Shown here in pieces: positions 267 to 782 of a DNA stretch of 64,000 nt. Source of the DNA: a virus; the IMG/VR virus record IMGVR_UViG_3300033273_000208, positions 9,884 to 73,883 of that record; one strand, 5' to 3'. The position numbers and the translations under genes were made by a program. Numbering within the stretch: the stretch's first letter is position 1; every line of letters starts with the position of its first letter. The notes beneath the pieces were generated by a model that worked only from the letters and a program-made list of their open reading frames with translations, did not search any database and was not told the origin of the DNA.

Positions 267-782
267 ATGGCAGGCGGCATTCAGAAAGGCATGGTTGCTA
301 CTGATGCACATGCACGCAAACTTGACAACCAATGTAAAGTCCTCAAAGAGGAGATTGCAGACGTTTTGCAATACACTGGTGTGACATTACAGAAAAAACT
401 GAAGAAGAATCAAATCCCTGGTGGTAAGGGTGCTTGCGAACCTGATGGTGGCGCATGGTTCTACAAAGGCAAACTGATTGCAGTGTTTGAAGGTAAGAAA
501 CAGCAGGACGCTGGTAATGCTATCGAACGCTGGTTCAAGAACAACTACATCTGCCGCAAGATTAACCCTGATGTGTCATACGTCACCTTTGCAATCGGTG
601 ATGGTGCATACTCTGATGGTGTGATCGGTAAGGCACTCAACGTTGCACATCTTGATGGGTTTGATACATATAATGCTGGTGGCAACTCTTGCTTCTTTAA
701 CACTCAAGGTTTTACAAAAGAAGAGATCCGTGCTATCATGATTAAAGTCCTTGCAGAGCGTATTCAGAATGAGGATAGTTGA
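267..782 (+). CDS. EcoRI/MunI-family PD-(D/E)xK endonuclease (minimal, no adjacent methylase)
   Basis: PDGG (441-452), EGKKQ, AGNAIERWFKN, YVTF..G are collinear with EcoRI PDGG..EAKHQ..AGNAIERSHKN..YVLF..G; start moved to ATG 267, downstream of the -10. Confidence 0.8.
   Translation: MAGGIQKGMVATDAHARKLDNQCKVLKEEIADVLQYTGVTLQKKLKKNQIPGGKGACEPDGGAWFYKGKLIAVFEGKKQQDAGNAIERWFKNNYICRKINPDVSYVTFAIGDGAYSDGVIGKALNVAHLDGFDTYNAGGNSCFFNTQGFTKEEIRAIMIKVLAERIQNEDS

Follow-up and report, generated by a model that had tools for sequence, protein, structure and literature searches.

How a phage could carry a restriction nuclease of the EcoRI type with no methylase to shield its own DNA is the question raised by an open reading frame (ORF) located at positions 267–782 (+ strand) of the stretch analyzed here. 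This stretch, referred to below as the window, comprises 64,000 nucleotides of viral DNA corresponding to bases 9884–73883 of a 73,883-bp IMG/VR contig (G000; CheckV 41% complete). The ORF encodes a compact EcoRI-family PD-(D/E)XK nuclease of 171 amino acids (aa), and the tetranucleotide AATT is missing from the DNA that surrounds it. It is likely, though well short of certain, that the product is an active, homodimeric, Mg-dependent type IIP nuclease of the EcoRI lineage that cuts at AATT, that its methylase was lost after the sites had been purged, and that the phage is immune by the absence of AATT. The core of this reading, i.e., an EcoRI-fold nuclease with probable AATT specificity and methylase-free self-immunity by erasure, is well supported by comparative tests. 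What we infer is that the enzyme cleaves, where exactly it cuts, that the purge of sites preceded the loss of the methylase, and what the biological target is (host chromosome and/or co-infecting phages); early expression, host degradation and exclusion of rivals are conjecture.

DNA and protein similarity placed contig G000 among the T4-like cyanomyoviruses (Kyanoviridae), with the Synechococcus phages S-RIM2 and S-BM1 as the closest isolates (∼75% nucleotide identity across parts of the region). Its G+C content is 45.7%, and the DNA, described as AT-rich in an earlier sequence-only reading of the window, is therefore only mildly so. Two sister contigs from IMG/VR, G001 (111,864 bp) and G002 (89,959 bp), show 99.99% mutual identity; across ∼66 kb they share 87% nucleotide identity with G000, and their nuclease is 95% identical to that of G000. 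Together, these contigs cover ∼118 kb of the estimated 175–180 kb genome of the lineage (CheckV 41% and 63%).

A Compact Homologue of EcoRI and Its Usual Methylase Partner

The ORF product was assigned to PHROGs family 2400, listed with "unknown function" (E 4.5e-80), and received no assignment from Pfam or NCBIfam. Sequence searches against PDB chains, either with the single protein or with a 27-sequence profile, gave nothing meaningful, and the homology was hence shown by structural and profile–profile methods. The AlphaFold2 model, built from 27 homologues, had a mean predicted local distance difference test (pLDDT) value of 80.8. The five best Foldseek matches in PDB were all EcoRI (E 7e-6 to 7e-5). 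Alignment with EcoRI (1ERI) using VIA-align covered 150 of the 171 residues (model residues 18–171, EcoRI residues 32–268) at a root-mean-square deviation of 2.9 Å and a Z score of 14.0, the next unrelated chain reaching a Z score of 9.2. MunI was not among the structural matches listed by Foldseek and VIA-align, which is uninformative either way. For the profile comparison, three PF02963 genes from Bacteroidota genomes (405–499 bits) served as the EcoRI-family reference, and a phage-family profile of 50 members was aligned to the three proteins by hhalign with 98.3% probability (E 2.6e-14, 163 columns).

The hhalign register placed the PDGG, ExKxQ and GNAIER motifs of the phage protein at EcoRI residues 90–93, 111–115 and 140–145, respectively, which agrees with the EcoRI order claimed for them from the sequence alone. 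The segment P59-D60-G61-G62 (positions 441–452, + strand) aligns with EcoRI P90-D91-G-G, which holds the catalytic Asp. E75-G-K77-K-Q79 (489–503, + strand) aligns with EcoRI E111-A-K113-H-Q115, comprising the catalytic Glu and Lys together with the Gln by which the inner thymine is read, and G83-N-A-I-E-R88 (513–530, + strand) with EcoRI G140–R145, the segment that reads the inner AATT. In EcoRI, the inner AATT is read by Arg145 and the main chain of Asn141 and Ala142, with Ala142 wedging the central step and Gln115 reading the inner thymine (PMC4081073). Residues D60, G62, E75, K77, G83, N84, A85 and R88 were invariant across 50 family representatives down to ∼31% identity. Relative to EcoRI, the protein lacks the inner arm (21 residues, located between Q115 and GNAIER), as well as the outer arm and some of the N-terminal region; the M137/A138 part of the EcoRI extended chain likewise has no counterpart. 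The protein is thus a homologue of EcoRI, and the fold proposed earlier was borne out by structure and profile: the residues for catalysis and for reading AATT align with their EcoRI counterparts, and the arms are missing.

Prediction of a two-copy complex gave a score of 0.60, the best of three controls reaching 0.01, and the runs showed at least 91% contact agreement with a partner pLDDT of at least 76. Of the proteins solved as one-chain pairs, 20 of 30 reach the mark applied to such predictions, compared with 1 of 23 known as single chains. In the model, the two copies meet symmetrically along the helix beginning at GNAIER. The score may merely mirror the solved EcoRI dimer; because that dimer had already been solved, the result was taken as likeness to EcoRI and not as independent proof.

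In a library of 1.84 billion proteins, the nuclease family divides into 277 clusters at 50% identity. Its near-absence from cellular genomes was read from a scan with a narrow pattern (GNAIERW), in which 185,579 prokaryote species genomes gave a single match, on a 2,951-bp contig of an Aquirufa metagenome-assembled genome (L181/L183). Aquirufa is a freshwater member of the Bacteroidota, and the contig probably represents a phage fragment caught up in the binning. The family was present in 65 of 50,697 phage records; all were listed as Synechococcus phages, and the 60 listed were S-RIM2 and S-BM1. The members carry the GenBank label "hypothetical protein". No earlier description of the family, or of AATT avoidance in cyanophages, was found in the literature.

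A methylase of the D12/Dam family is located directly downstream of the nuclease gene, after a few bases or after an extra ORF, in 43 of 48 IMG/VR loci. In S-BM1, the nuclease gene overlaps the start of the 284-aa methylase gene (SBM1_00186; L002, 20516–21370) by 4 nt, while S-RIM2 has an extra ORF separating the nuclease gene from the methylase gene (L001, 21678–22532). The linked methylase belongs to the D12 class of Dam-family N6-adenine enzymes (PF02086, E 1e-30; TIGR00571, 136.7 bits with a cut-off of 114.85). At 90% identity or above, it was present in 64 of the 50,697 phage records, all of them S-RIM2 or S-BM1, i.e., the nuclease-carrying group. It has been annotated with the generic name "Dam DNA adenine methylase" (T4-GC_161) and is 23–36% identical to the common cyanophage Dam-like methylases. 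Given this divergence and its occurrence only alongside the nuclease, the GATC-type identity implied by the annotation is doubtful. The methylase adjoining the gene in 43 of 48 loci, and in S-RIM2 and S-BM1, indicates that the nuclease is normally the R half of a phage type II restriction–modification (R-M) pair. Judged from their gene content, the cultured phages S-RIM2 and S-BM1 probably carry a complete R-M system. The nuclease had been called an orphan, and the term holds for the window, where it stands without a methylase, and not for the family, in which R-M pairing is widespread among phages.

The extra ORF of S-RIM2 (SWTG_00031; L001, 20614–21669) encodes ∼350 aa with a weak match to DUF6551. 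Its homologues were seen in L014, L019–L021, L041–L045 and L049, and it was absent from S-BM1 and most other loci. A mobile insertion is one possible interpretation, a third component another.

AATT Depletion and the Nuclease Gene

The window contains no AATT on either strand from position 1 to 64000; nor do the 9.9 kb of G000 that lie outside it, or the 112-kb and 90-kb sister contigs. Dinucleotide shuffling of the window gave an expectation of 282 ± 15 sites, and a second-order Markov model (Markov-2) an expectation of 232 for the 73.9-kb contig G000; for G001 and G002, 339 and 281 sites were expected, respectively. Permutation of synonymous codons in 54 ORFs, keeping proteins and codon usage, yielded 288 ± 13 AATT (minimum 248) against none observed. 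This gap indicates that the synonymous dodging of AATT noticed in the codon choices is real; AATT can always be avoided synonymously, and it was avoided every time in this genome. The 4.3 kb of non-coding DNA, in which ∼26 sites were expected, also had none. The complete absence of AATT first reported from the letters alone thus stands against nulls of 232–288 expected sites.

Only one other tetranucleotide, CCGG, is missing, and it is absent from G001 and G002 as well. The four RGCY words (AGCT, GGCC, GGCT/AGCC) are ∼7-fold depleted in G000. CCGG was not found in nearly all of the sampled marine cyanomyovirus loci, with or without the nuclease (including L001, L002 and L062–L141); 40 kb of S-RIM2, for example, contained none where ∼30 were expected. 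Host restriction and another phage nuclease are possible causes of this group-wide avoidance of CCGG and RGCY.

The relation between AATT and the nuclease gene was evaluated with 80 further cyanomyovirus loci anchored on the neighbouring helicase. Removal of near-duplicates left 97 loci of at least 5 kb each, 38 with the nuclease and 59 without, for which Markov-2 observed/expected ratios (O/E) were calculated for the 136 reverse-complement tetranucleotide classes. AATT was the best discriminator of carriers from non-carriers among all 136 classes, with a median O/E of 0.39 vs. 0.84 (Mann–Whitney p 1.8e-13). The next discriminators, AATC and AATG, are one step from AATT and were enriched in carriers. 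The carriers span 34–46% G+C and 58–100% nuclease identity. In those with a methylase, all 10 NAATTN classes were depleted to 0.26–0.63 of the non-carrier level, which favours a 4-bp site over a hexamer such as GAATTC. Whether the gene and the depletion of AATT vary together across cyanomyoviruses had been put forward for study in the sequence-only reading, and the comparison came out in its favour, independently of the flanking bases.

The gene-less relatives nearest to this lineage (helicase amino acid identity 67–73%) lack CCGG likewise and have an AATT O/E of 0.66–0.87. Three carriers of both nuclease and methylase, represented by 38–80 kb each (G409, L187–L190; G410, L191–L192; G411, L193–L194), have a CCGG O/E of ∼1 and are 6–12-fold depleted in AATT. 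These two sets of relatives show that the absence of CCGG and the depletion of RGCY are a general trait, and that AATT depletion follows the nuclease gene. The background of G409–G411 differs from that of the marine Synechococcus group, which shows the AATT effect to travel with the gene pair.

The search for a methylase covered six families (PF02086, PF01555, PF00145, PF13651, PF02384 and PF05869) across the whole of G000 and G001 (∼118 kb together) and detected none, in agreement with the earlier statement that the window holds no DNA methyltransferase. A search for PF05063 (MT-A70) had no match in the control genomes and is given no weight. Comparison of the two contigs showed 8,044 substitutions in 63,654 aligned columns (12.6% divergence). 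The same substitutions placed at random would have created 153 ± 13 AATT sites, or 172 ± 11 with codon phase kept, and neither genome has any. The absence of these ∼150–170 expected new sites argues for ongoing selection against AATT and not for an inherited accident. The nuclease had a ratio of nonsynonymous to synonymous substitution rates (dN/dS) of 0.09 between the two methylase-less sub-lineages, which marks it as under purifying selection and still functional. In a quick maximum-likelihood tree, this lineage and another methylase-less clade formed separate groups nested among the methylase-bearing carriers. The nesting suggests, with modest support, that methylase loss is a derived state; two independent losses are not forced by the tree.

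The O/E of AATT is graded among the carriers: 0.58 in G413, 0.27 in S-RIM2 and 0.08–0.16 in G409–G411, where the methylase is present, and 0 in this lineage, where it is absent. The genomes of methylase-paired carriers are 1.2- to 12-fold depleted in AATT, and every examined relative with a methylase tolerates the word (O/E 0.07–0.86). A possible course of events would begin with the nuclease and the Dam-family methylase as a phage R-M pair and mild depletion (O/E 0.58–0.86), followed by strong depletion with the methylase still in place (O/E 0.07–0.27). AATT might be selected against even in the presence of the methylase, perhaps as fast recombination-driven replication outruns methylation. 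With the purge complete (O/E 0), the methylase would become dispensable once the last AATT sites had gone and could be lost, the nuclease being kept. The enzyme itself would consist of a catalytic core and an AATT-reading element and would cleave at the 4-bp palindrome AATT; the phage would be exempt by lacking the word, leaving host DNA and the unmethylated DNA of rival phages as substrates.

Evidence Against the Proposed Reading and Rival Explanations

Several observations weigh against an AATT-cutting nuclease to which the phage is immune by site erasure, some of them directly and others through the rival that they favour. Among the direct ones, the specificity is deduced from motifs and genome statistics only, and the carriers compared are phylogenetically related, so that the Mann–Whitney p overstates their independence. 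A lysine of the phage protein (K122), invariant in the cyanophage group, is placed opposite R200 of EcoRI, a residue in contact with the outer G, and a flanking-base contact or some flank preference is therefore possible. The protein also falls below the PF02963 threshold, with weak matches in 3 of 27 close homologues (best E 0.011) and, against a cut-off of 22, 19.2 bits in one distant family representative. The most serious misfit is a clade (L026, L034 and L142–L147) that has an intact nuclease with all motifs and an AATT O/E of 0.68–0.99. A D12 methylase was not found within 6–10 kb of the gene in this clade, nor in a 23-kb record (G003), and the downstream neighbour is a DUF6267 protein with a KxDG-like motif, not a methylase (for this arrangement, L026, 1797–3277, and L142, 6284–7764). 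The contigs of the clade are of low GC (∼36%) and only 5–11% complete. Given this low completeness and the distant second D12 methylase seen in other cyanomyoviruses, protection may be encoded elsewhere in these genomes; if they are truly unprotected, the simple model of a free AATT cutter fails there. Abundant AATT in relatives that carry the gene had been named beforehand as an argument against the idea. It was encountered in this clade, and most carriers were depleted.

The purge of AATT might instead be the work of a host restriction system that cuts AATT, the phage nuclease being incidental (a remnant of R-M or a protein with another role). This phage and almost all related cyanomyoviruses, whether or not they carry the gene, lack CCGG and are ∼7-fold depleted in RGCY, which means that these words were purged for reasons unrelated to the nuclease, presumably host restriction, and that word erasure under external pressure is routine in the group. 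Avoidance of restriction sites by phages is, moreover, common and well documented (PMC6286503). Such a cause would not readily account for the nearest gene-less relatives, which share the absence of CCGG and not the depletion of AATT (O/E 0.66–0.87), or for AATT being the single best discriminator of gene carriers. It also sits poorly with carriers of normal CCGG content (G409–G411) that are still 6–12-fold depleted in AATT, and with the strong purifying selection on the nuclease after methylase loss. Avoidance driven by the host is thus unlikely as the whole explanation; it is compatible with an AATT-cutting phage nuclease, and the two are not exclusive.

The system could also be an ordinary R-M system with its partner elsewhere, a methylase or another protective modification being encoded in the unsequenced 35–40% of the genome. 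The contigs are 41–63% complete, and the ∼60 kb of the lineage genome that is unseen could encode a methylase or another DNA modification. Some relatives (G006, G411 and G413) have a second D12 methylase far from the nuclease, and the L026/L142 clade, which tolerates AATT with no neighbouring methylase, hints at protection from a distance. Yet, with a working methylase AATT is tolerated (O/E 0.07–0.86), and here none of the ∼150–170 expected new sites has appeared; the six methylase families gave no match in ∼118 kb, and the methylase slot is occupied by another gene in both sub-lineages. A distant partner is accordingly rated as improbable, slightly more so than avoidance driven by the host.

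Least credible among the rivals, and given little weight here, is that the protein, although of EcoRI fold, has a different specificity or role (6-bp site, nicking, repair/recombination or homing) and is linked to AATT only indirectly. In its favour are the missing arms and M137/A138 part of the extended chain, the failure of Pfam and NCBIfam to assign the protein, and the coexistence of the L026/L142 clade with AATT. These are outweighed by catalytic and AATT-reading residues that are all invariant down to 31% identity, by the strict linkage of the gene to one methylase type, by a depletion that is AATT-specific and flank-independent, and by AATT and CCGG being the only absent words, the latter independently of the gene.

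Genomic Surroundings, Known Systems and Significance

Upstream of the nuclease gene, an intrinsic-terminator-like hairpin (204–226, + strand) with a 10-bp stem, 8 G-C pairs and a T-rich tail ends the preceding unit just 5′ of the gene. A TATAAT hexamer resembling a −10 element (236–241, + strand) lies 25 nt upstream of the ATG without a matching −35 element, making the promoter call weak; a consensus scan scored no −35/−10 pair upstream of the ORF. The gene had been described as driven by an early promoter, and a hairpin and a TATAAT with no scored pair do not establish one. The ORF is open from 267 to 782, and an alternative ATG at 240 would give a protein of 180 aa. Relatives of the stretch are contained in 20 public runs from 9 studies, and the lineage itself is present in seawater metagenomes of several studies. 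The two RNA libraries among them held only ∼90%-identical fragments of other relatives and left most of the nuclease gene without cover, so they are mute on transcription and timing.

The 3′ end of the nuclease gene is overlapped by 14 nt by a gene for a 2-oxoglutarate (2OG)-Fe(II) oxygenase (PF13640; 769–1338, + strand). This gene fills the slot that the methylase occupies in relatives; it does so in both sub-lineages, and no other nuclease carrier has it there. The model of the oxygenase (pLDDT 76.9) matched prolyl hydroxylases and AlkB about equally, hence no substrate can be inferred. That this oxygenase, which is translationally coupled to the nuclease, acts on nucleic acid, for example by stripping rivals of protective methyl groups, is pure speculation and very improbable.

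Among known enzymes, the phage protein is closest to EcoRI and RsrI (type IIP, G^AATTC, PF02963), with which it shares the fold, the PD...ExK triad, the Gln after the Lys, an identical GNAIER in register and, in the predicted model, a symmetric dimer formed through the helix starting at GNAIER. It differs from them in its length (171 vs. 277 aa), the deleted arms, a score below the Pfam threshold and its location in a virus. The inferred site is also of 4 bp and not 6 bp as in EcoRI, and the partner in phage relatives is of the D12/Dam family and not an EcoRI-type methylase (PF13651), with none found in this genome. The AATT core is shared with MunI (C^AATTG), which has the motif GNAHER, and with MluCI, Tsp509I and Sse9I (^AATT), the predicted specificity of the phage enzyme being that of MluCI and Tsp509I. 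These enzymes are bacterial and have cognate methylases, and the comparison with them is by site. The absence of every AATT here and the depletion of all 10 NAATTN classes in carriers are consistent with the flank independence expected of a ^AATT isoschizomer, as word statistics and not as cleavage. EcoRI, MunI and MluCI have been grouped as possibly mosaic relatives in a 2014 NAR review (PMC4081073); beyond one phrase in that review, cloned ^AATT enzymes related to EcoRI were not found in the literature.

Virus-encoded type II endonucleases with short (2–4 bp) sites and adjacent R and M genes are known from the chloroviruses, as in R.CviAII/M.CviAII of PBCV-1, where host DNA is believed to be broken down by them in the first minutes of infection and a role in keeping out rival viruses was once suggested (PMC7019647). 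The chloroviruses differ in that they infect eukaryotic algae and package their endonuclease in the virion. There, R always occurs with M, the orphans being methylases and not nucleases, and no total site erasure in place of methylation has been described. Avoidance of restriction sites by phages likewise involves purged sites (PMC6286503). It is normally aimed at enzymes of the host and not at the phage's own.

Two further systems offer parallels in how DNA is spared. T4 destroys host DNA with EndoII (DenA) and EndoIV (DenB), and its own DNA is exempt through genome-wide hydroxymethylcytosine. The phage studied here would resemble T4 as a lytic myovirus with its own DNA exempt, but the nucleases are of unrelated fold, and the exemption would be purely informational, by absence of a word, where that of T4 is chemical. 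The endonuclease PacI reportedly has no accompanying methylase, its 8-bp site being absent from the host. That site is a rare, AT-only word in a GC-rich bacterium, unlike the 4-bp word considered here, which has several hundred expected copies and is absent from at least 118 kb.

In its boldest form, the proposal is of an unrestrained 4-bp cutter directed against the host and co-infecting phages, with immunity existing only as the absence of AATT over a ∼180-kb genome reached stepwise from an R-M pair, and with the linked methylase doubling as phage–phage immunity in relatives. This fuller version is offered tentatively, as somewhat less than an even prospect. The case is one of a probable EcoRI-lineage type II enzyme in an unusual methylase-free evolutionary state, within a previously unannotated phage R-M family. 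If true, it would be a natural case of a frequent 4-bp cutter kept without its modification enzyme, the carrier genome having been rewritten to lose the site, and the graded series of relatives would show the route from an R-M pair to the methylase-free state. As S-RIM2 and S-BM1 are in culture with a probable complete R-M system, the idea is directly testable. The analysis also brings to light a family of minimal EcoRI-like nucleases, so far unannotated and specific to viruses, in which a 171-aa enzyme with the catalytic and AATT-reading core of EcoRI may serve as a minimal scaffold for the study and engineering of specificity. For the abundant marine cyanophages, the nuclease would provide a candidate mechanism for the breakdown of host DNA or for exclusion between phages.

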